A stretch of DNA of 58,036 nt, taken from contig JAHBUM010000001.1 in the NCBI GenBank assembly GCA_019638075.1, positions 1 to 58,036 of the forward strand. The letters are read 5' to 3'. A model generated the notes under the pieces. The model was not told the DNA's origin and ran no database searches. It saw only the letters and a program-made list of their open reading frames with translations. Both the position numbers and the translations under genes were made by a program. The stretch is from Flavobacteriales bacterium (GTDB lineage: Bacteria > Bacteroidota > Bacteroidia > Flavobacteriales_F > PHOS-HE28). How positions within the stretch are numbered: the first letter of the stretch is position 1; every line of letters begins with the position of its first letter. This document shows positions 2,022 through 48,665 of this stretch, piece after piece.

Positions 2022-2909
2022 TTAACCTTTCAAGGCTTCGGCCCCGCCTACGATCTCAAGGATCTCGCCCGTAATAGCGGCCTGCCTTGCCTTGTTGTAG
2101 GACAGTTTCAACCCCTTCAGCAGGCTGTCGGCGTTGTCCGTGGCCTTGTGCATGGCGGTCATGCGGGCACCGTGCTCCGCAGCATTGCTGTCCAGCAGCG
2201 CCTTGTAGAGCTGGATCTTCAGGCTCTTCGGGATGATGTTCTCCACGATCTCCTCCCGGCTCGGCTCCATGATGTAGTCCACCTTGGAGGGAGCGGCTTT
2301 GGAGGAGGCCTCCGCTTTGGGCGGTGCCACGGGCAGATAGGGCTCCTCCACGAGGATCTGCACCGCAGCGTTCTTGAACTTGTTGTACACCAGCACGACC
2401 TGGTCGTAGGTGCCGTTGGCGAAGAGCTCCATGAGCAGCTCGGCCTTCGGAGCCACCTTGTCGAAGCTCAGGCCATCGTACAGGCTGGCACCATCCGTAG
2501 GTAGGTCGGCGTTGAAGTACTTCGTGCGGCGGTAGGTATCCAGCGCCTTCTTGCCGAGGGGCAGGATGTGAACGGTCTTGCCTTCGCTCTCCAACTGTGC
2601 AACTGTGCGGCGGATCTGGCGGAACACCTGCGTGTTGAAGGCGCCGGCCAGACCACGATTGCTCACGATGGCCACCATCAATACCTTTTTCACCTCGCGC
2701 TGCTGGCTGTACTTGCCTTCGCTGCTGTCCAGCGAAGCACTCACGTTGCTCAGGATCTGCTGCAGCTTCTCCGCGTAAGGACGCATACGCGTGATCGCAT
2801 CCTGGGCACGACGCAGCTTGGCCGCGCTCACCATCTTCATGGCTGCGGTGATCTGCTTGGTGCTGTTGACCGAGACGATCCGGTTGCGTACTTCCTTCAG
2901 GCTTGGCAT
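2022..2909 (-). CDS. atpG: F0F1 ATP synthase subunit gamma
   Basis: 295 aa. MPSLKEVRNRIVSVNSTKQITAAMKMVSAAKLRRAQ ... ITGEILEIVGGAEALKG are the canonical gamma termini. Lies in the atp operon. Confidence 0.97.
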   Translation of the reverse strand: MPSLKEVRNRIVSVNSTKQITAAMKMVSAAKLRRAQDAITRMRPYAEKLQQILSNVSASLDSSEGKYSQQREVKKVLMVAIVSNRGLAGAFNTQVFRQIRRTVAQLESEGKTVHILPLGKKALDTYRRTKYFNADLPTDGASLYDGLSFDKVAPKAELLMELFANGTYDQVVLVYNKFKNAAVQILVEEPYLPVAPPKAEASSKAAPSKVDYIMEPSREEIVENIIPKSLKIQLYKALLDSNAAEHGARMTAMHKATDNADSLLKGLKLSYNKARQAAITGEILEIVGGAEALKG

Positions 2910-2929: not shown

Positions 2930-2998
2930 GAGTAACGAGTGGCGAGTAGCGAGTGCTGCGACCATCAGGCAGCACTCGCTACTCGCCACTCGTTACTC
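2930..2998 (-). terminator. perfect 30-bp stem / 9-nt loop hairpin in the atpA-atpG spacer (attenuator or mRNA-stabiliser candidate, no U-tract)
   Basis: 2930-2959 gagtaacgagtggcgagtagcgagtgctgc is the exact reverse complement of 2969-2998. Checked base by base. Confidence 0.6.
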
Positions 2999-3010
2999 AT
3001 CACGCGCATT

Positions 3011-4591
3011 TTAGTTATCCAGGCTCTTCACCAGATCTGCGGCAACCTTCTCCAGCGTACTGGTGATCTGGTCGTTGTAATCACCCTTCTTCAACGCTTC
3101 CAGCACATCGTTGTGCTTGTTGCGCAGCATGGTGATGAACTCGGCTTCGAACTGCTTGATGTTCTTCACCGGCACCTTGCTCAGCAGGCCCTTGGTACCG
3201 CAGTAGATGATGGCGATCTGCTCTTCCACGCGCACCGGGCTGTTCTGCCCCTGCTTCAGGATCTCCACGTTGCGGGCGCCTTTATCCAACACCGCTTTCG
3301 TAGCAGCGTCGAGGTCGGAACCGAACTTCGAGAAGGCCTCCAATTCGCGATAAGCGGCCTGGTCAAGCTTCAGCGTACCGGCCACTTTCTTCATGGACTT
3401 GATCTGCGCGTTGCCACCTACGCGGCTCACGCTGATACCCACGTTGATGGCGGGGCGCACACCGCTGAGGAACAGGTTGCTCTCCAGGAAGATCTGTCCA
3501 TCGGTGATGGAGATCACGTTCGTGGGGATGTAGGCGGATACGTCACCGGCCTGCGTTTCGATGATCGGCAGGGCGGTCAAGGAACCACCACCTTTCACTT
3601 TGCCTTTCAGCGAAGCCGGCAGATCGTTCATCTGTTCAGCTACGCTTTGGTCGGCGGTCACTTTCGCGGCGCGCTCCAGCAGACGGCTGTGCAGGTAGAA
3701 CACGTCACCAGGATAAGCCTCACGTCCGGGAGGACGACGCAGCAGCAGCGACACTTCGCGGTAGGCCACGGCTTGCTTCGAGAGATCATCGTACACGATC
3801 AGTGCAGGACGACCGGTATCGCGGAAGTATTCGCCGATGGCGGCACCGGTGAACGGCGCGTAGAATTGCATCGGGGCAGGGTCGCTGGCGTTGGCGGCCA
3901 CCACCGTGGTGTAGGCCATGGCGCCTGCTTCCTCCAACACCTTCACCGTACCGGCCACCGTGGAGCCTTTCTGTCCGACGGCCACGTAGATGCAGTACAC
4001 CGGTTTGCCGGCGTCGAAGAATTCCTTCTGGTTGATGATCGTATCGATCGCCACCGTGCTCTTGCCGGTCTGGCGGTCACCGATGATCAATTCGCGCTGG
4101 CCACGGCCCACGGGGATCATGGCGTCGATGGCCTTGATACCCGTTTGCAGCGGCTCCTTCACAGGCTCACGGTAGATCACACCGGGGGCTTTGCGCTCGA
4201 TCGGCATCTCGAACAGCTCGCCGCTGATCGGGCCTTTCCCGTCGATGGGTTCGCCGAGGGTGTTCACCACACGGCCGACGATGCCTTCGCCGGTCTTGAT
4301 GCTCGCGATGCGCTTGGTACGCTTCACCGTGTCACCTTCCTTGATCCCCACGCTGGGGCCAAGCAGTACGGCACCCACGTTGTCCTCCTCCAAGTTCAGC
4401 ACGATGGCCTGCAGGCCGCTGTTGAACTCGATGAGCTCACCGCTCTGCACGCCCTTCAGGCCGTAGATGCGGGCGATGCCATCACCCACTTGCAGCACGG
4501 TACCGACCTCCTCGAGCTCGGCCTCGCTGCGGAAACCGGCGAGTTCTTGTTTCAGGATCGCCGATACTTCGGCGGGTTGCACTTGAGCCAT
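3011..4591 (-). CDS. atpA: F0F1 ATP synthase subunit alpha
   Basis: 526 aa. Walker A GDRQTGKS, ...[25 protein letters not shown]. Confidence 0.98.
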
Positions 4592-4739
4592 TGCGTTGAC
4601 GCTGGAGCGTGGTTATGAGAGAGAGGTGAGAAGGGCGAATGAGGTAAGGGGGGTAATGGATGCAATGCGGGCAGGGGAGTGAACGTGCATGGGCACTTCT
4701 CTTACCGCCTTTACCATCCTCTCCATCTTCACCATGGTC

Positions 4740-5794: not shown

Positions 5795-5842
5795 GGCTCA
5801 GACTGGGAAAAGGGTTATTGACCGTGACCGCCTCGCCGATGC

Positions 5843-13892: not shown

Positions 13893-13959
13893 GGGGCAGG
13901 GGCAGGAGCAGGGGCAATGATCCCGTCTTGCTCCTGCTCCTGCTCCTGCACCCCGCCCC
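13893..13959 (+). terminator. long hairpin (about 25 bp, GGGGCA-hexamer arms) after the M23 gene, abutting the GH3 start codon
   Basis: 13893-13917 pairs with 13928-13952. 19 Watson-Crick pairs, 2 G-U and 1 mismatch counted by hand. 10-nt loop. Confidence 0.55.
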
Positions 13960-21201: not shown

Positions 21202-21210
21202 AGCAAGTAG

Positions 21211-21359
21211 GCAGCAGGCAGTCAGCAGCAGGCAGTCGGCAGCACGCGGTCCGCGATGTACTGCTGAGCCGGACCATCGCAGGCACCAATAAGCCATCGG
21301 CTTCCCGCTGCGGCGATAGGTGCCGAACTGCCGACTGCCTGCTGCTGACTGCCTGCTGC
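21211..21359. repeat. 149-nt element: perfect 32-bp terminal inverted repeats flanking an 85-nt structured core (MITE-like element or structured RNA)
   Basis: 21211-21242 gcagcaggcagtcagcagcaggcagtcggcag is the exact reverse complement of 21328-21359. Each arm is itself about 2.3 copies of a 14-mer. The core contains nested small stems (ggcacc/ggtgcc, aagcc/ggctt). Confidence 0.6.
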
Positions 21360-21409
21360 ATTCTGCATTCCCCCCGAACCCCGAACTCCTTCTTCACGTA
21401 CAACACACC

Positions 21410-21769
21410 ATGCCTCATGTGGTGCTGGTGGAGGACGACGCGCTCGTTCGCAAGCTTTTGGAAAAGCGGCTCGTTGTGGCCGGATGGCAGGTCACCAGCC
21501 TGCGCGATGGCCGTGGCCTCGTGGCCCAGCTTCAGCAGCAGCCCGCGGACCTCATCCTCATCGACCTCGGCCTGCCGCACATCGATGGCCTCGCCTTGGT
21601 GGAGGATCTCCGCGCCAGCGGCATCGACACGCCGGTGATGATCCTCACCGCCTACGACCTGCCGCACCTGCACGCCACCGTGCGCAGCACAGGCGCGAAC
21701 GCACTGGTGCAGAAACCCTACGATCAGGAAGACCTGATCCGGCGGATGCACCGGTTGCTGGCAGCTTGA
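21410..21769 (+). CDS. single-domain response regulator (CheY-like receiver)
   Basis: MPHVVLVEDDALVRKLL...DLILIDLGLPHIDG...PVMILTAY...KPY. ATG 21410 chosen over GTG 21320, which lies inside the inverted repeat. Confidence 0.88.
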   Translation: MPHVVLVEDDALVRKLLEKRLVVAGWQVTSLRDGRGLVAQLQQQPADLILIDLGLPHIDGLALVEDLRASGIDTPVMILTAYDLPHLHATVRSTGANALVQKPYDQEDLIRRMHRLLAA

Positions 21770-21779
21770 ACGAAATACA

Positions 21780-21835
21780 GGGGCAGGGGCAGGAGGCAGG
21801 GACGCGTCATTGCCCCTGCCAACTGCTCCTGCTCC
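21780..21835 (+). terminator. GGGGCA-word hairpin after the response regulator (degenerate relative of 13893-13959)
   Basis: ggcaggggca (21782-21791) pairs with tgcccctgcc (21811-21820). Shares ggggcaggggcaggag and ctgctcctgctcc with the 13.9-kb hairpin. Confidence 0.45.
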
Positions 21836-24758: not shown

Positions 24759-25985
24759 ATGTCCTCCGCCGAGCAACGCGTCATCCTGCACCTGGACCTG
24801 GACAGCTTCTTCGTGAGCGTGGAGCGGCTGCACAACCCGGCCCTGGTGGGCAAACCCGTGATCGTGGGTGCCGACAGCGACCGCGGCGTGGTGGCCAGCT
24901 GCAGCTACGAGGCCCGGGCCTACGGTGTGCGCAGCGCCATGCCCATGCGCACCGCCAAGCAGCTCTGCCCCGACGCCATCATCGTGCGCGGCAACAGCGG
25001 TGCCTACATGGAGATGAGCGATGTGGTGACCGAGCTCATCCGCGCGCGCGTGCCGCTGTTCGAGAAGACCAGCGTGGACGAGTTCTACGTGGACCTCACG
25101 GGCACGGAGAAGTTCTTCGGCGCGGAGAAGCTGGCGCGCGATGTGCGGGCGGCGATCCTGCGCGAAACCCACCTGCCCAACAGCTTCGGCCTCTCCGCGA
25201 ACAAGACCGTGAGCAAGGTGGCCACCGATGATGCGAAGCCCAACGGCACCAAGCAGATCGCGCACGGCACCGAGAAGCCCTACCTGGCCCCCAAGCCCAT
25301 CGAGGCCATCCCGGGCGTGGGCGGCAAGACGGCGCATCTGCTGCGCAGCATGGGCGTGGCGCGCATCGCCACCATGCAGGAGATGCCCATGGAGTTGCTG
25401 GAACGGCTGCTCGGCGCGCACGGCCCCGTGCTGTGGCGCAAGGCCAACGGCATCGACCCCAGCCCCGTGGTGCCCTGGCACGAACGCAAGAGCATCGGCA
25501 CTGAACGCACCTTCGCCACCGACACGCTCGACCTGGTGAAGGTGCGCGGCATGCTCACCGCCATGGCCGAGAGCCTGGCCTTCCAGCTGCGCCGCGGGCG
25601 CCGGCTCACGGGCTGTGTGAACGTGCGCGTACGCTATGCCGACATGGAGACGCACGACCGCCAGCAGCGCATCCCCTACACCGCCTGCGACCACCTGCTG
25701 TTGCCGCTGGTGCACGACCTCTTCCACAAACTCTACGACCGCCGGCAGCGCATCCGGCTCATCGGCGTGCGCTTCAGCAACCTCGTGGGCGGCGGCCACC
25801 AGATGGACGCCTTCACCGACACCGAGGAGGCCATGCGGCTGTACCAGGCCATGGACAAGATCCGCCAGCGCTTCGGCGACCGCACCGTGATGCGCGCCAG
25901 CGGCATGGACGCGCACAGCATCGGCCGTATGGACGATCCGTTCGACGGGCAGGCACCGCTGCTGCTGGCCAACCGACGTACTTAG
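24759..25985 (+). CDS. dinB: DNA polymerase IV (Y-family)
   Basis: 408 aa. ILHLDLDSFFVSVE...SCSYEARAYGVRSAMP...VDEFYVDLTG...KTVSKVATD.AKPNG are the Y-family catalytic motifs. Confidence 0.93.
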   Translation: MSSAEQRVILHLDLDSFFVSVERLHNPALVGKPVIVGADSDRGVVASCSYEARAYGVRSAMPMRTAKQLCPDAIIVRGNSGAYMEMSDVVTELIRARVPLFEKTSVDEFYVDLTGTEKFFGAEKLARDVRAAILRETHLPNSFGLSANKTVSKVATDDAKPNGTKQIAHGTEKPYLAPKPIEAIPGVGGKTAHLLRSMGVARIATMQEMPMELLERLLGAHGPVLWRKANGIDPSPVVPWHERKSIGTERTFATDTLDLVKVRGMLTAMAESLAFQLRRGRRLTGCVNVRVRYADMETHDRQQRIPYTACDHLLLPLVHDLFHKLYDRRQRIRLIGVRFSNLVGGGHQMDAFTDTEEAMRLYQAMDKIRQRFGDRTVMRASGMDAHSIGRMDDPFDGQAPLLLANRRT

Positions 25986-27663: not shown

Positions 27664-30600
27664 CTATTTGGCCCCGTACCGCGGATCGGGCTTCCACGGC
27701 AATTTCATGAACCGTTCGGTGCGCAGGGCGCAATGCCCGAACTCCTCCTCCACCACACCGGTGAGCAGATACACACCGCGCCCACGGAAGGGATGGCGCG
27801 CGGCCACCTGCGGGAACTGCGTGCTGTCCCAGAAGTCGCCCGCGGGATCGATGAACGAACCGAAGGTCATCTGTTGCCCGTAGTGCGTGGTGGTCGTCTT
27901 CACGTGGATCAGATAGCCGCGCATGGCGACGCGGCGGCCGATGTGCTGGGGCATGTCGCGCGCGCCGATGTGCGGCAGGTCCGTGGGAATGGTGTCGGCG
28001 GTCGCGTCCACCAGCGTGAACGGATCGCACAGCGGGAAGCCCAGCAGCTCCAGCTCGTCGTAGGCATCGGCCAGCGGATGATGGTGCAGCGGTGGCAGCG
28101 CAGGCTCTTCCACACGCGTGGCGAACAGATCATGACCCGCACCGACACGTGCCGGACGATGCAGCAGGGCCAGGTCCCACAACAGCTGCGGCTTGCTGCG
28201 ACCGGTGAAGCGCAACGCCCCGGCACGCACCAGCAGACGCGCCTGCTCGAGCTCCAGCGGCACACGCCGCAGCAGGTCCTGCAGATCGGTGAAGGGCCCG
28301 CGGCGACGCCGTTCTTCCAGCACCGCGTGCACCGTATCGCTCGTGAGGCCTTTGATGTGCGCGAGGCCGAGTTGGATCCGGGGAGCCGGTCGGGAGTTGT
28401 CGGTCGTGGGTCGGTCGCGCTCACCGTGACAACGCACAACCGACCACTGACACCCCCTCCTTGCCAACGAACACCACTCCTCGCTCGTGTTCACGCACGG
28501 CGCCTCGATCACCGCGCCCGCCCGTTCCGCCTCGTGCAGGTAGAACTCGGTGCGGTAGAACCCACCGAAGTTGTTGGCCACGGCCACTAGGAACTCCAGC
28601 GGGTGGTGGGCCTTGAGGTAGAGGCTCTGGTAGCTCTCCACGGCATAGCTCGCACTGTGGCCCTTGGCGAAGCTGAAGCTGGCGAAGCTTTCGATCTGGC
28701 GCCAGATCTCCTCCACCTCCTGCGGTGGATGGCCGAACCGTTGGCAATTGGCGAAGAACTTCCGCTCCACTTCCTTGAAGTCGTCCCGTTCGCGGTAGCG
28801 CAGGTTCATGCCGCGCCGCACCTGATCGGCCTCGGACAAGTTCAAGCCACCGTACTGCACCGCCACCTTGATCACGTCCTCCTGGTACACCATCACGCCG
28901 TAGGTCTCGGGCATGATCTCCAGCAGTCGCTTGGGGGCCTGCTTGCGCCGTTCGGGGTCGTGGTGACGCAGCAGGTACTCGCGCATCATGCCGCTCTCGG
29001 CCACGCCCGGGCGGATGATGCTGCTGGCCGCCACCAGCCCGAGGTAGTCCTCCACGCGCAGCTTCTTCAGCAGCATGCGCATGGCCGGGCTCTCCACGTA
29101 GAAGCAGCCGATGGTGTCGCCCTTGCGCAGCAGCTCCTTGATCGCGGGGTCCTGCTTGAAGCGCGGGATGTCGTGGATGTCGACGGGCTCCGGGGCCGCG
29201 GCGTTCACCATCTCCACCGCATCGCGGATGTGGCCCAGGCCGCGCTGGCTCAGCAGATCGAACTTGTGCAGACCCAGGTCCTCGCACTCCAGCATGCTGA
29301 TCTGTGTCACCGGAAAGCCTTTGGGCGGGCGATGCAGCGCGGTGAAGTGCGTCACGGGCCTCTCGGTGATCACCACGCCCCCGGCATGGATGCCGAACTG
29401 GTGCGGCATGCCGATGAGCCGTTGCGCATGCCGCACCACCGCGCGCGCCACGCGGTCCACGGTGCCTGCCCGCACCTGCGCGCTGGGAGCGCCGCGCCCC
29501 CAGCCGCCTTCGTCGCCCGCGCTCAGCGCATCGATCTCTGCGGGTGGCAGGCCGAGCGCCTTGCCCAGCTCACGCACCGCACCCCGCCATTGGAAGGTGG
29601 TGTAGGTGGCGATCTGCGCGGCATGGATGCGTCCCGCGTCGGGACCGTTGTACTTCGAGAAGATGTAGCGGTACACCTCGTCGCGGTCCTTCCAGCTGAA
29701 GTCGATGTCGAAGTCGGGCGGGTTGCGCCGCGCGGGATTGATGAAGCGCTCGAAGTAGAGGTCCAATTCCAGCGGGTCCACGTCGGTGATCCCGAGGCAA
29801 TAGGCCACCAGGCTGTTGGCGCCGCTGCCGCGCCCCACGTGGAAGAAGCCCCGGCTCCGCGCGAAGTCCACGATGTCCTGGTTGATACGGAAGTAGCTCA
29901 CGAAGCCCTTCTGGTCGATCACGTCGAGCTCGTGGCGCAACCGCTCCAAGGCCCGCTGCGACGGCCGTCCGTAGCGGGTGTGCAGCCCGCGCAAGGCATC
30001 GGCGTGCAGGCGCTCGCGGTCCTCGCGCTCGTCGGCGCCGAAACTGCGCCAGGTCTTGTCGCTGGCGTCGAAGGCGATGATGCATTCCTCCAGCAGGGCC
30101 ATGGTGTTCCGCGGCAGGTGCGGATGGTCCTGGTAGATGCGCATCACCTCGTCGGATGAGCGGAACACTTCGTCGGGCCGGGCCAGTTCCTCGGGTGGTA
30201 GCAGGCTCAGCACGGTGTTGTGGGCCACGGTGCGCAGCAGCCGGTGCAGATCGAACTCGCGATGGCGTTCCGTGCCGGGATCGCGGAAGGTCACCGGCAT
30301 CCAGGCCACGAGGTCCTTGGTGGATCGGGCCCAGGGGCTGAAGGGCAGGCGCGTGAGGTCGCTGGGGCGCACGCCGATGCGTTCGTGCGGCAGTAGCGTG
30401 CGGTGCGGCGTGGTGAAGGGCAGGATGAAGTACGTGTGCTCCAGCAGCGGCGGTCGTTCGGGCAGCGGCGTGCCATCGAGCAGGTGGGTACTGAGGAGCG
30501 TGTTGAGCGCTTGGAAGCCCTCGTTGTTGCGGGCCAATCCGATGTACAGCAGGTGCGACCCTTGCCGGAACTCGATGCCCACCACGGGCCGCACACCGTG

Positions 30601-30759
30601 CTTCGGTGCGTCGCGCACGAAGTCGGGCACGCCGGCCGTGCAGTGGATGTCGGTGAGCGCGCACACCGTGGCACCCGCGCGTGCGGCCTCCTCCAGCAAG
30701 GCGCCGGGCCGCAGCACGCCGTACTTCAGGCTGAACCAGCTGTGGCAGTTGAGGAACAT
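27664..30759 (-). CDS. dnaE2: error-prone DNA polymerase III alpha-subunit homolog (DnaE2-like, about 1031 aa)
   Basis: PHP domain MFLNCHSWFSLKYGVL...ALTDIH. Pol III alpha core FHVGRGSGANSLVAYCLGITDVDP...FERFINPAR...PDFDIDF...HAGGVVI. Its short length fits DnaE2 rather than replicative DnaE. ATG 30759 chosen over TTG 30792. Confidence 0.85.
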   Translation of the reverse strand: MFLNCHSWFSLKYGVLRPGALLEEAARAGATVCALTDIHCTAGVPDFVRDAPKHGVRPVVGIEFRQGSHLLYIGLARNNEGFQALNTLLSTHLLDGTPLPERPPLLEHTYFILPFTTPHRTLLPHERIGVRPSDLTRLPFSPWARSTKDLVAWMPVTFRDPGTERHREFDLHRLLRTVAHNTVLSLLPPEELARPDEVFRSSDEVMRIYQDHPHLPRNTMALLEECIIAFDASDKTWRSFGADEREDRERLHADALRGLHTRYGRPSQRALERLRHELDVIDQKGFVSYFRINQDIVDFARSRGFFHVGRGSGANSLVAYCLGITDVDPLELDLYFERFINPARRNPPDFDIDFSWKDRDEVYRYIFSKYNGPDAGRIHAAQIATYTTFQWRGAVRELGKALGLPPAEIDALSAGDEGGWGRGAPSAQVRAGTVDRVARAVVRHAQRLIGMPHQFGIHAGGVVITERPVTHFTALHRPPKGFPVTQISMLECEDLGLHKFDLLSQRGLGHIRDAVEMVNAAAPEPVDIHDIPRFKQDPAIKELLRKGDTIGCFYVESPAMRMLLKKLRVEDYLGLVAASSIIRPGVAESGMMREYLLRHHDPERRKQAPKRLLEIMPETYGVMVYQEDVIKVAVQYGGLNLSEADQVRRGMNLRYRERDDFKEVERKFFANCQRFGHPPQEVEEIWRQIESFASFSFAKGHSASYAVESYQSLYLKAHHPLEFLVAVANNFGGFYRTEFYLHEAERAGAVIEAPCVNTSEEWCSLARRGCQWSVVRCHGERDRPTTDNSRPAPRIQLGLAHIKGLTSDTVHAVLEERRRRGPFTDLQDLLRRVPLELEQARLLVRAGALRFTGRSKPQLLWDLALLHRPARVGAGHDLFATRVEEPALPPLHHHPLADAYDELELLGFPLCDPFTLVDATADTIPTDLPHIGARDMPQHIGRRVAMRGYLIHVKTTTTHYGQQMTFGSFIDPAGDFWDSTQFPQVAARHPFRGRGVYLLTGVVEEEFGHCALRTERFMKLPWKPDPRYGAK

Positions 30760-30782
30760 GATCGACGGATATTGCGTCGATC
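30760..30782. promoter_or_regulatory. palindromic operator candidate GATCGAC-N9-GTCGATC abutting the dnaE2 start codon
   Basis: Read directly from sequence. An extra GTCGATC half-site lies at 30784-30790. Confidence 0.55.
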
Positions 30783-30789
30783 CGTCGAT

Positions 30790-30799
30790 CAAAAAGATA
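30790..30799 (-). promoter_or_regulatory. candidate -7-like box TAtcTTTTTG for dnaE2
   Basis: Plus-strand caaaaagata equals minus-strand TATCTTTTTG, 7 nt upstream of the operator candidate. Confidence 0.3.
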
Positions 30800-36506: not shown

Positions 36507-36509
36507 GGG

Positions 36510-36599
36510 GAGAAGTAAGCGAGTGGCGAGTAGGCGAGTACCGCAACATCCACCATGCGGCACCCGCCACTCTTCTACCCGCCACTCATTTACTTCTTC
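36510..36599 (+). terminator. long imperfect hairpin (GAGTGGC/GAGTAGG-word arms) between kinase 2 and the response regulator
   Basis: gaagtaa (36512-36518) pairs with ttacttc (36590-36596). gagtggcg (36521-36528) pairs with cgccactc (36580-36587), plus inner gtag/ctac and gagt/actc. Shares gagtggcgagtag with the atpA-atpG hairpin. Confidence 0.5.
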
Positions 36600-36614
36600 A
36601 CTACATTAGCGGAC

Positions 36615-37844: not shown

Positions 37845-38143
37845 GTGGTTCGTTGTTTGGTTCGTGGTCTGCTTAGCTCGTAGACCCTGTACAGCAGGAT
37901 CAGGAGGATCGGGATGCCCAGTGGATGGTGTTCCATCGAGGCGCTGAATTCGAGGTGCATCGCATCGTGCAGGGCATGCCCTATGCCACAGCCCCAGCAG
38001 GAGGTGAGGCCCATCCAGTGGAAGAGGCAGAGCGTGGGGCCTTCATCGCCGTGGCCGAAGAAGAGAACGAGCAATCCGACGCTCCATGCCATCCGTTCGG
38101 AGGTCGCATACCCGATCAGCTTTTTCAGCTTCTGCCAACTCAT
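37826..38143 (-). CDS. DUF2752 domain-containing membrane protein
   Basis: 105 aa from ATG 38143. ...CLFHWMGLTSCWGCGIGHALHDAM (C..F....G..C.GCG..HA) is the DUF2752 signature. 19-nt overlap with the TM2 gene. Confidence 0.7.
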   Translation of the reverse strand: MSWQKLKKLIGYATSERMAWSVGLLVLFFGHGDEGPTLCLFHWMGLTSCWGCGIGHALHDAMHLEFSASMEHHPLGIPILLILLYRVYELSRPRTKQRTTWISNS

Positions 38144-38166
38144 CACGATCGTGATGAGTTGGCAGA
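38131..38166. promoter_or_regulatory. perfect 36-bp palindrome spanning the DUF2752 start codon
   Basis: tctgccaactcatcacgatcgtgatgagttggcaga equals its own reverse complement, verified base by base. Confidence 0.6.
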
Positions 38167-39108: not shown

Positions 39109-39512
39109 CACTTCACGATCTCCTGACACAGTTCCACCAGCACACCGCCCGCGCTCTTCGGGTGTACGAAGCACACGAGCTTGTTATCGGCGCCGCGTTT
39201 GGGCTCCTCGTTCAGCAGGGTGAAGCCTTCTGCTTTCAGGCGGGCCATTTCCGCGCGGATGTCTGCCACCTCATAGGCGATGTGGTGGATGCCCTCGCCA
39301 CGCTTCTCTATGGCCTTGGCGATGGGTCCATCGGGGCGGGTGCTTTCCAGCAGTTCGATCTTGTTCGGCCCCACTTGGAAGAACGAGGTGATGACGCCTT
39401 CGCTCTCCACGGCTTCGCGCTTGTAGCTGGCGGCACCCAGCAGCTTGTGGTACAGTTCCTCGGCGGCGCTGAGGTCCTTCACGGCGATGCCGATGTGTTC
39501 GATGCGGATCAT
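39108..39512 (-). CDS. mce: methylmalonyl-CoA epimerase (VOC family)
   Basis: 134 aa. IEHIGIAVKDL..A...Y...LG...........EGV...F......KIELLE......PIAKAIEKRGEGIHHIAYEV.DI......LK..G...L...P..GA.....CFVHPKS..GVLVEL. Confidence 0.88.
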   Translation of the reverse strand: MIRIEHIGIAVKDLSAAEELYHKLLGAASYKREAVESEGVITSFFQVGPNKIELLESTRPDGPIAKAIEKRGEGIHHIAYEVADIRAEMARLKAEGFTLLNEEPKRGADNKLVCFVHPKSAGGVLVELCQEIVK

Positions 39513-39525
39513 GGGTGGAGGGGGC

Positions 39526-39600
39526 GTCAGTTGTCAGTTGTTGGTTGTCAGGCTGTGGGAGTGTGCTGGTCGGCAGCCTGACAACTGACGACCAACAACC
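39526..39600 (-). terminator. long hairpin (about 26 bp, GTCAGTT/GTTGGTT-word arms) between a canonical terminator and the mce start
   Basis: 39530-39555 pairs with 39574-39599. By hand, 21 Watson-Crick pairs, 3 G-U and 2 mismatches. 18-nt loop. Confidence 0.5.
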
Positions 39601-39606
39601 ACCTCC

Positions 39607-39631
39607 AAAGAAAAACCCTCCGGCAGGAGGG
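39607..39631 (-). terminator. canonical intrinsic terminator of the 39656-40441 gene
   Basis: Minus strand reads CCCTCC-tgcc-GGAGGG followed by TTTTTCTTT, 25 nt after the stop codon. Confidence 0.7.
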
Positions 39632-39655
39632 TCTTCCAACGCGTTTTTGATCCCC

Positions 39656-41691: not shown

Positions 41692-41757
41692 GGGGCGAAA
41701 GTTAGGCGGGGGATCGGTTGTCGGGCTCCTTGGCGGCAGAGCGGAGAAGCCACAAGT

Positions 41758-41843
41758 TTCAAGGCTCAAGCTTCAAGCTCAAAACGGCAAGCCCGACCGG
41801 TGATGCTTGTGCCTTTGAGCTTGAGCCTTGAAGCTTTGAGCTT
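41758..41843 (-). terminator. long imperfect hairpin (CAAGCTN-word arms) directly after the alpha-2-macroglobulin stop
   Basis: 41758-41792 pairs with 41805-41840. About 30 pairs with a few bulges, traced by hand. Confidence 0.5.
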
Positions 41844-41853
41844 CCTTCCTTTC

Positions 41854-48638: not shown

Positions 48639-48665
48639 CAATTGCGAATTGCTAATTGCTAATTG
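48639..48665. repeat. tandem heptamer repeat (N)AATTGC, about 4 copies
   Basis: caattgc gaattgc taattgc taattg read directly from sequence, in the convergent intergenic spacer. Confidence 0.6.

Follow-up and report, generated by a model that had tools for sequence, protein, structure and literature searches.

The stretch of DNA analyzed here, referred to as the window, is a complete 58,036-bp contig (GC content 63%) of a Flavobacteriales metagenome-assembled genome (MAG), for which a gene map was built from open reading frames (ORFs), GC content at third codon positions (GC3), Pfam matches and orthologues. Its atp operon carries a perfect 30-bp hairpin, here named H1, in the spacer between atpA and atpG. 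H1 is one of a family of elements that are palindromic from end to end, have arms built of tandem words, are dispersed and turn over readily. The hairpin and its two neighboring genes are arranged as follows:

2022 to 2909, minus strand: atpG, ATP synthase gamma, 295 aa, downstream of H1 (PF00231)
2930 to 2998, minus strand: H1, perfect 30-bp hairpin, arms 2930-2959 and 2969-2998, loop 2960-2968 (9 nt), 30 of 30 positions paired
3011 to 4591, minus strand: atpA, ATP synthase alpha, 526 aa, upstream of H1 (ORF; Pfam match on the orthologue of relative L083)

On the minus strand, where both genes lie, the last position of the atpA ORF is 3011 and the ATG of atpG is at 2909, leaving a co-directional spacer of 101 nt in which the H1 stem stands 12 nt from the atpA stop and 20 nt from the atpG ATG. 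The arm at 2930-2959 reads as the words GAGTAAC GAGTGGC GAGTAGC GAGTGCT (the last stretch of the arm is GAGTGCTGC), with a lag-7 identity of 0.70 (P ~0.001-0.002 against random window segments). Folded as RNA on the transcribed (minus) strand, H1 reached -64.8 kcal/mol compared with -25.9 ± 3.1 for 200 dinucleotide shuffles, none of which was as good (z = -12.4), and by simple arithmetic 58 kb would contain by chance ~2e-12 inverted repeats that pair perfectly over 30 bp across a loop of at most 40 nt. An earlier note on this DNA, made from the letters of the window, had described the perfect pairing, the 9-nt loop, the 101-nt spacer and the lack of a U-tract, all of which were confirmed. The palindrome was found in two independent short-read assemblies (L081 and L082) and is thus not an artefact of one assembly. 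In both, contigs begin within the palindrome (L081 1-53, L082 1-21); perfect foldback elements such as H1 fragment short-read assemblies and are therefore under-counted in MAGs. No Rfam family matched anywhere in the window at gathering thresholds. At E ≤ 1 only generic eukaryotic miRNA-precursor models were reported for H1, far below threshold, and these were rejected as meaningless matches to a long hairpin. Exact-protein look-ups of AtpG and AtpA for strain polymorphism returned one 1.2-kb contig only and no record.

Additional hairpins of this type were sought across the window. Sliding-window minimum free energies were uninformative at 63% GC (background -38 ± 7 kcal per 110 nt), and stem-quality filters with shuffle z-scores were used. 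A gapless hairpin scan misses bulged members, and Tandem Repeats Finder (TRF) combined with a search for reverse-complement partners was added. Gene starts near hairpins were corrected from orthologues and Pfam. The resulting hairpins and associated features are:

4615 to 4735, minus strand: H8, weak purine-arm/pyrimidine-arm structure in the atpH-atpA spacer (z -2.6 sense, -3.7 antisense)
13893 to 13953, plus strand: H3, (GGGGCA)n/(TGCTCC)n hairpin in the M23 peptidase-GH3 spacer, 12 nt from the stop and 6 nt to the ATG (z -7.3)
21209 to 21359, plus strand: H5, long-loop hairpin in the GtrA-response regulator spacer (stop 21201, ATG 21410), arms 21209-21244 and 21328-21359, ~32-bp stem, ~83-nt loop, words AGGCAGC/GCAGTCA (z -9.0; partner search score 32)
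21356 to 21386, plus strand: heptamer duplications (CTGCATT)x2 and (CCCCGAA)x2 beside H5
21780 to 21835, plus strand: H4, paralogue of H3 in the response regulator-DAO oxidoreductase spacer (z -7.6)
36509 to 36600, plus strand: H2, imperfect paralogue of H1 filling the histidine kinase-LuxR response regulator spacer (stop 36506, ATG 36615; z -7.5)
39517 to 39606, minus strand: H6, GTCAGTT/GTTGGTT words, between a terminator and the glyoxalase ATG at 39512, reading CAACTGA CAACTGA on the sense strand 10 nt ahead of that ATG (z -4.0)
39607 to 39637, minus strand: intrinsic terminator (GGAAGACCCTCC tgcc GGAGGGTTTTTCTTT) with a U-tract, conserved in three relatives
41746 to 41844, minus strand: H7, CAAGCTT-word hairpin in the spacer between an A2M-like gene (2093 aa) and a lipoprotein gene (z -3.4)
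48640 to 48665: (AATTGCT)x3.7 direct heptamer array, intergenic, without an inverted partner

Six of the seven further tandem-word hairpins proposed in the earlier note were solid (z -3.4 to -9.0), while the structure at 4615 was weak and its membership in the family is doubtful. All eight hairpins lie in co-directional spacers, as had been claimed, and most begin 2-12 nt past a stop codon; the one noted at 39526 (H6) follows the U-tract terminator and not a stop codon directly. Compared with random segments of the window, arm periodicity at lag 6-7 was significant in H1, H3, H5, H6 and H7 (each arm at P < 0.015) and marginal in H4 and H8. It was not significant for H2 without gaps, yet TRF detects 7/8-nt words there. 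Inverted tandem arrays (a TRF array with a reverse-complement partner) numbered 5 in the 58 kb of the window, or 7 counting H4 and H6; by the same criterion, 80 other Bacteroidota loci contained 16 in 1.42 Mb, 12 of these in the atpA-atpG spacer. The (AATTGCT)x3.7 array may represent a precursor stage or be unrelated. Longest-ORF starts fall within hairpin arms at 21320, 36555, 39533 and 41769, where orthologues place the starts at 21410, 36615, 39512 and 41691; tandem-word hairpins thus mislead start-codon calls and lengthen N-termini in automatic annotation. A perfect 16-bp palindrome of a different kind, centred on GATC and not made of tandem words (TCTGCCAACTCATCAC gatc GTGATGAGTTGGCAGA), was observed at 38131-38166 in or beside a DUF2752 ORF.

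The hairpins fall into families. Local alignment of H1 with H2, whose words read GAAGTAAGC GAGTGGC GAGTAGGC GAGTACCGC and onward, extends word for word from one arm through the loop to the other (z 15.9), and H3 aligns with H4 likewise over arms and loop (z 16.0); all remaining pairs gave z of at most 2.1. The earlier statement that each hairpin uses different words is therefore incorrect, with 2930 and 36510 forming one family and 13893 and 21780 another. Furthermore, a third H3-type copy with the loop GGGATCATTGCCCCTGC in common was found in the atpI-atpB spacer of a related genome (L086, 95% AtpG identity), a site with no such copy in the window or in L083.

Comparison of orthologous spacers, which the earlier note had proposed, revealed empty sites, different hairpins or decayed copies in relatives. 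The GtrA-response regulator spacer measures 208 nt in the window and 37 nt in L087, where the site is empty and the 3′ 35 nt are conserved. The response regulator-DAO spacer (87 nt in the window, 17-32 nt in relatives) lacks H4 in L088 and L090 and holds a larger hairpin with related words in L087. Similar length differences were seen between the A2M-like and lipoprotein genes (~160 nt in the window, 14-35 nt in relatives) and between atpH and atpA (148 nt in the window, 44 nt in L083, 12 nt in L086), and H6 is absent from L091, L093 and L095. H3 is older: weaker orthologues occur in L086/L090 and L088, the spacer measures 79 nt in L086 as it does in the window, and H3 has decayed in L086 (-33 vs -54 kcal). 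Beside H5, the window carries (CCCCGAA)x2 where the orthologous spacer of L087 (9411-9447) has a single CCCGAAC, which together with the partnerless AATTGCT array indicates that duplication of word units is ongoing.

At the atpA-atpG site itself, a relative at 99% has H1 in common, relatives at 95% AtpG identity have a GTAGCGTCGACCC...GGGTCGAC hairpin or else a weak one that is unrelated, and a relative at 89% AtpG identity carries a different perfect hairpin of 28 bp, likewise with a 9-nt loop. A GTAGCGTCGACCC-nnn-GGGTCGACCTAC hairpin with an invariant stem and a variable loop was observed upstream of atpG in L007-L011, L013 and L086 (L086 9945-9972). Since the GTAGCGTCGACCC hairpin is common to six more distant relatives, it probably occupied the site ancestrally and was replaced there by H1. 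Paralogous families, a non-orthologous H3 copy in another species and filled and empty orthologous sites together bear out the suggestion in the earlier note that H1 may be a mobile palindromic element.

Elements of the repetitive extragenic palindrome (REP) and bacterial interspersed mosaic element (BIME) type, moved by a RAYT (Y1) transposase, would also form dispersed families of extragenic palindromes shortly past stop codons within operons, and a GTAG-headed GTCGACCC hairpin is kept at the H1 site in six high-GC relatives. However, REPs are palindromes of 20-40 bp with GTAG or CGTC tags (PMC3733652), whereas the window elements measure 56-151 nt and the flanks of H1-H7 carry no unpaired GTAG or CGTC tag. 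No RAYT was present among the 30 window ORFs scanned, and two copies per hairpin family were seen in the 58 kb. The GTAG...GTCGACCC hairpin of the relatives was rejected as a REP, given that it occurs once per 20-kb locus and is an orthologous conserved hairpin rather than a dispersed repeat. We consider a REP-type origin of H1 highly improbable.

The earlier note had also proposed that H1 could attenuate read-through into atpG. An intrinsic terminator or attenuator lacking a U-tract would be consistent with a very stable GC-rich stem directly 3′ of atpA, at a position suited to the 3:1 alpha:gamma requirement, and with the enrichment of hairpins at this junction described below. However, intrinsic terminators combine a short GC-rich stem, a 3-8 nt loop and a U-tract, and the 30-bp stem and 9-nt loop of H1 lie beyond this usual geometry. 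The sense-strand sequence past the stem (GCAACTAGACTCC) is free of T-runs, and a consensus terminator scan gave no call at the site. In addition, the conserved terminator at 39607-39637 indicates that the clade terminates with U-tract hairpins; H6 sits between this terminator and the glyoxalase ATG, and three relatives keep the terminator without H6. At two metagenome loci, L109 (1443-1680, minus strand) and L133 (6243-6450, minus strand), (GAGTGGC)n arms enclose an A-tract/hairpin/T-tract terminator that is separate from the arms. A terminator-type attenuator is thus an improbable explanation of H1.

To place H1 among other atp operons, 72-80 Bacteroidota atp operons were surveyed junction by junction, with a strong hairpin defined as -15 kcal or stronger. 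Strong hairpins were enriched at exactly two junctions, being found in 72% of atpE-atpF and 51% of atpA-atpG spacers compared with 1% of atpB-atpE, 1% of atpF-atpH and 4% of atpH-atpA spacers. Because the five junctions share one transcript, the difference between them cannot be explained by expression level. At both favored junctions a high-copy subunit (c, alpha) is followed by a low-copy one (b, gamma), which lends indirect support to the role in stoichiometry or protection of the atpA 3′ end that the earlier note had raised. The atpA-atpG spacers (n = 80) were at most 38 nt long in 31 operons, 65-108 nt in most others and ~400 nt in five. Many of the low-GC atpA-atpG hairpins have arms of 7-8-nt words, for example TAAATGC TAAATTT TAAATGA, ATTTGAAG ATTTGAAA, and TAGTGAT TAGTAAT.

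The atpE-atpF hairpin was observed in 48 of 74 Bacteroidota loci (e.g., L030 7250-7284), with an invariant apex (AAC-GGTTG-GTT) on species-specific stems. In 46 distinct sequences, 9-12 stem positions were 91-100% paired with 4-6 pair types each, and a T-run often follows on the 3′ side. No matching Rfam family was found for it, and it is absent from the window (equivalent position 5795-5842) and from the high-GC relatives.

The five atpA-atpG spacers of ~400 nt belong to five Flavobacteriales species, and in each a 112-aa ORF is enclosed by (GAGTTAT)n ... (ATAACTC)n arms. Its product matches PF05635 (‘23S rRNA-intervening sequence protein’; 74.5 bits, cutoff 33.8) and TIGR02436 (‘four helix bundle protein’), and a relative has been solved (PDB 2RLD). 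Like flanks were found around three further chromosomal TIGR02436 genes (in Flavobacterium agri, (TTATTCG)n...(CGAATAA)x12), in a metagenome locus recovered with the H1-type pattern (L189: (GAGTAAC)x4 ... TIGR02436 ORF ... (GTTACTC)x5) and around 10 of 11 plasmid TIGR02436 genes, the hosts of the plasmid genes being Nostoc, Anabaena, Euhalothece, Planktothrix, Chondrinema, Bernardetia, Treponema, Monoglobus and Chlorohelix. Inverted tandem-heptamer arrays flank 20 of the 21 TIGR02436 genes examined, which span Bacteroidota, Cyanobacteriota, Spirochaetota, Bacillota and Chloroflexota, while among 1500 random pseudo-genes a flank-to-flank inverted alignment score of at least 20, the level typical of the genes with such arrays, occurred at a frequency of 0.0007. 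The architecture of H1 equals that of the arms of these cassettes and of intervening sequences (IVSs). Moreover, ORF-less atpA-atpG spacers match the cassette arms found at that same site (L049, z 10.0; L020, z 10.6), and the arm sequence in common indicates that ORF-bearing and ORF-less forms interconvert.

Cassette genes were located within operons, between atpA and atpG, cas2 and cas1, the adaptor and permease genes of an RND system, hsdS and hsdR, and DrmD and PglX. Those in defence operons (L217, L218, L223, L225, L226 and L227) come from plasmids of Nostoc, Anabaena, Monoglobus, Chlorohelix, Pseudanabaena and Planktothrix and occupy cas2/cas1, hsdS/hsdR, helicase/methylase and DrmD/PglX sites, with one lying beside cas1 and two of the genes on the opposite strand. 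A metagenome scan for (GAGTNNC)x3.5 recovered at least 120 loci, and 19 of 80 had an inverted partner; such arrays and inverted pairs are widespread, and the scan, run with no control pattern, does not mark GAGT words as special.

The closest described counterpart of H1 is the Coxiella burnetii IVS, a 428-nt selfish element in 23S rRNA with a 28-bp terminal stem and an S23p ORF (PMC4990558). Its stem contains tandem GACAGAT heptamers in strain-variable number, RNase III cuts at the first repeat, and of the two 23S fragments left by excision, the upstream one is consistently present in the greater amount (PMC4990558). H1 resembles this element in stem length (30 bp vs 28 bp) and in tandem heptamers within the stem. 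Both ~400-nt ORF-bearing and short ORF-less forms exist, and the IVS gene family PF05635 lies in the loop of five Flavobacteriales atpA-atpG hairpins. In contrast to IVSs, H1 sits in an mRNA spacer and not in 23S rRNA helix 25 or 45, and the window is without rRNA. The 9-nt loop of H1 holds no PF05635/TIGR02436 ORF, but ORF-less IVSs are known, so that only a full-length form is excluded.

Sequences of the short tandemly repeated repetitive (STRR) class, which Vioque is said to have reported within RNase P RNA in 1997, are a second counterpart. In filamentous cyanobacteria, STRRs, usually of 7-bp repeats, fold into hairpins in the hupS-hupL spacer, for which a role in the stability of the transcript or in coupling of translation has been proposed (PMC2670836). 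As described there, 7-bp tandem units in both arms of a hairpin between co-transcribed genes are shared with H1; STRRs are mainly direct arrays, and dispersal of whole hairpins as families and a link to TIGR02436 are not known to belong to that description. The host of H1 is one of the Flavobacteriales rather than a heterocystous cyanobacterium, and the words differ from the STRR consensus units. Heptamer direct repeats near start codons are also known, with TAACTGA in Beggiatoaceae, Cyanobacteria and five Bacteroidetes (PMC4679880), as are intergenic TTTTGAA heptamer repeats in Nostoc (bioRxiv 10.1101/2022.06.06.494920). These share with the window hairpins a heptamer unit and an intergenic position near a start codon (compare the CAACTGA pair of H6), but they are direct arrays, for which inverted partners are not defining (1 of 170 sets).

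Among other palindromic elements, miniature inverted-repeat transposable elements (MITEs) have terminal inverted repeats, target-site duplications and a related autonomous element. H1 is inverted repeat throughout, and its candidate full-length form, the TIGR02436 cassette, is known only in other lineages. The Correia/nemis elements of Neisseria, which are cut by RNase III, and the REP between malE and malF of E. coli are transcribed palindromes that shape mRNA fate. They resemble the window hairpins as palindromes scattered over operon spacers, and by folding in the mRNA they change how stable its upstream part is relative to its downstream part, as is proposed for H1; unlike the window hairpins, they have a conserved consensus and defined ends or tags, and their arms are not tandem words. 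Foldback (FB) transposons of eukaryotes have terminal inverted repeats made of tandem sub-repeats, and many copies consist of the hairpin only. Arms of sub-repeats with a central coding region present or absent offer an analogy to H1, although FB transposons are eukaryotic, of kilobase scale and without homology. The earlier note, which did not recognize the architecture as a described REP/BIME/MITE class, is thus right with respect to REP/BIME, but overstates its case in view of the Coxiella heptamer stem (PMC4990558) and the intercistronic STRR hairpins (PMC2670836). In the open-access literature we found no paper on TIGR02436 genes being generally flanked by inverted heptamer arrays, or on such elements in operon spacers; for a connection of four-helix-bundle genes with inverted heptamer arrays, the Coxiella IVS paper was the one publication recovered. 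New here are the host clade, the location in an mRNA spacer, the ORF-less form and the multiple dispersed families, IVS- and STRR-type hairpins being already known.

From these observations we lean toward the view that H1 is an ORF-less, IVS-like foldback element that is co-transcribed with the atp genes and processed by RNase III, uncoupling the atpA and atpG mRNAs. The identity of H1 as a member of a dispersed foldback family with IVS-like architecture is probable. Such elements come and go in intercistronic spacers, where one may take the place of another. Their arms would grow by slippage of units, and their perfect pairing would be due to template switching between the arms or to a recent origin. 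Two polymerase genes were observed in the window, a Y-family DNA polymerase (IMS/impB, 24759-25985, plus strand) near a 1042-aa DNA polymerase III alpha-like gene (27664-30792, minus strand), the latter possibly of the error-prone DnaE2 type. Both may bear on slippage or template-switch mutagenesis.

The proposed processing of H1, together with its effect on stoichiometry, is more tentative and draws on analogy. H1 is presumably transcribed within the atp operon mRNA, as no terminator was detectable in the atpA-atpG spacer and a promoter consensus scan of the spacer, which was of the sigma-70 type and does not cover Bacteroidota promoters, found nothing. It would then fold into a perfect double-stranded stem of 30 bp. 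Duplexes of about two helical turns are substrates of RNase III; given this and the IVS precedent, the stem would most likely be cut by that enzyme as IVS stems are, or at least block 3′ exonucleases. The upstream atpA-bearing and the downstream atpG-bearing RNAs would then decay independently, which may favor alpha over gamma.

Several observations weigh against this explanation. No target-site duplication was visible at four filled/empty site pairs, and no transposase, RAYT or reverse transcriptase was found in the window or in ~200 kb of high-GC relatives. A TIGR02436 homologue was likewise missing from the window and these ~200 kb (tblastn, hidden Markov model), and the link to the cassettes is accordingly one of architecture, not of homology. 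RNase III cleavage of H1 is proposed by analogy alone, and the junction enrichment could reflect insertion tolerance rather than selection. The decayed H3 orthologues in relatives are what neutral decay would be expected to leave. Selection at the RNA level was not apparent at the atpA-atpG hairpins, for which sense and antisense folds were equally stable (17 vs 18 more stable; Wilcoxon p 0.92) and G.U pairs were not enriched on the sense strand.

The same lack of strand bias, together with the perfect symmetry of H1, would fit a site acting at the DNA level, such as a cruciform, a protein-binding repeat array with the words as iterated binding sites, or a recombination site such as attC. However, each family has its own words, the operons that carry the hairpins are housekeeping ones, and the window ORFs scanned included no integrase. 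An attC site and a G-quadruplex were both rejected as candidates, as the ends of H1 do not match attC core sites and just one family is G-rich. Such a DNA-level function is very unlikely.

A more serious alternative is that the hairpins are functionless by-products, with slippage making heptamer arrays and template switching making inverted copies that persist in tolerant spacers. PMC4679880 cites heptanucleotide repeats as the commonest class of long simple sequence repeats in bacteria, arising by polymerase slippage (Mrazek, 2007), and such a slippage origin is in line with the in situ heptamer duplication beside H5 and the direct AATTGCT array without a partner. The decayed orthologous copies, the lack of strand asymmetry and the frequency of (GAGTNNC)n arrays in metagenomes, about a quarter of them (19 of 80) with an inverted partner, also agree with a neutral origin. 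Slippage in situ leaves unexplained, however, the paralogues with a common word order and loop across sites and species, the restriction of hairpins to 2 of 5 atp junctions on one transcript, and the conservation of the atpA-atpG hairpin in six relatives. We regard a purely neutral origin as unlikely.

If H1 is indeed an IVS-like foldback element, then the S23p-gene IVSs of 23S rRNA, the STRR and heptamer repeats of cyanobacteria and the ubiquitous ‘four helix bundle protein’ genes in operons and defence loci, three phenomena that have been described apart and are poorly understood, would be one kind of element, resident in transcribed spacers and dealt with as RNA. The generalization on TIGR02436 cassettes, based on 21 genes, may be new. 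In its broadest and more doubtful form, TIGR02436/PF05635 (S23p, Avd-like) genes might define a phylum-spanning, hitherto unrecognized foldback class, in which a four-helix-bundle gene between inverted heptamer arrays inserts at dispensable transcribed positions (rRNA helix tips and spacers such as atpA-atpG, cas2-cas1 and hsdS-hsdR). Removal or splitting of the hairpin by RNase III would make insertions tolerable, and the class would spawn ORF-less derivatives, which in this genome would have proliferated and been co-opted to set operon mRNA ratios. Bacteroidota are without Shine-Dalgarno-based tuning, and strong hairpins after the high-copy atpE and atpA would provide these bacteria with a mechanism for setting subunit ratios.

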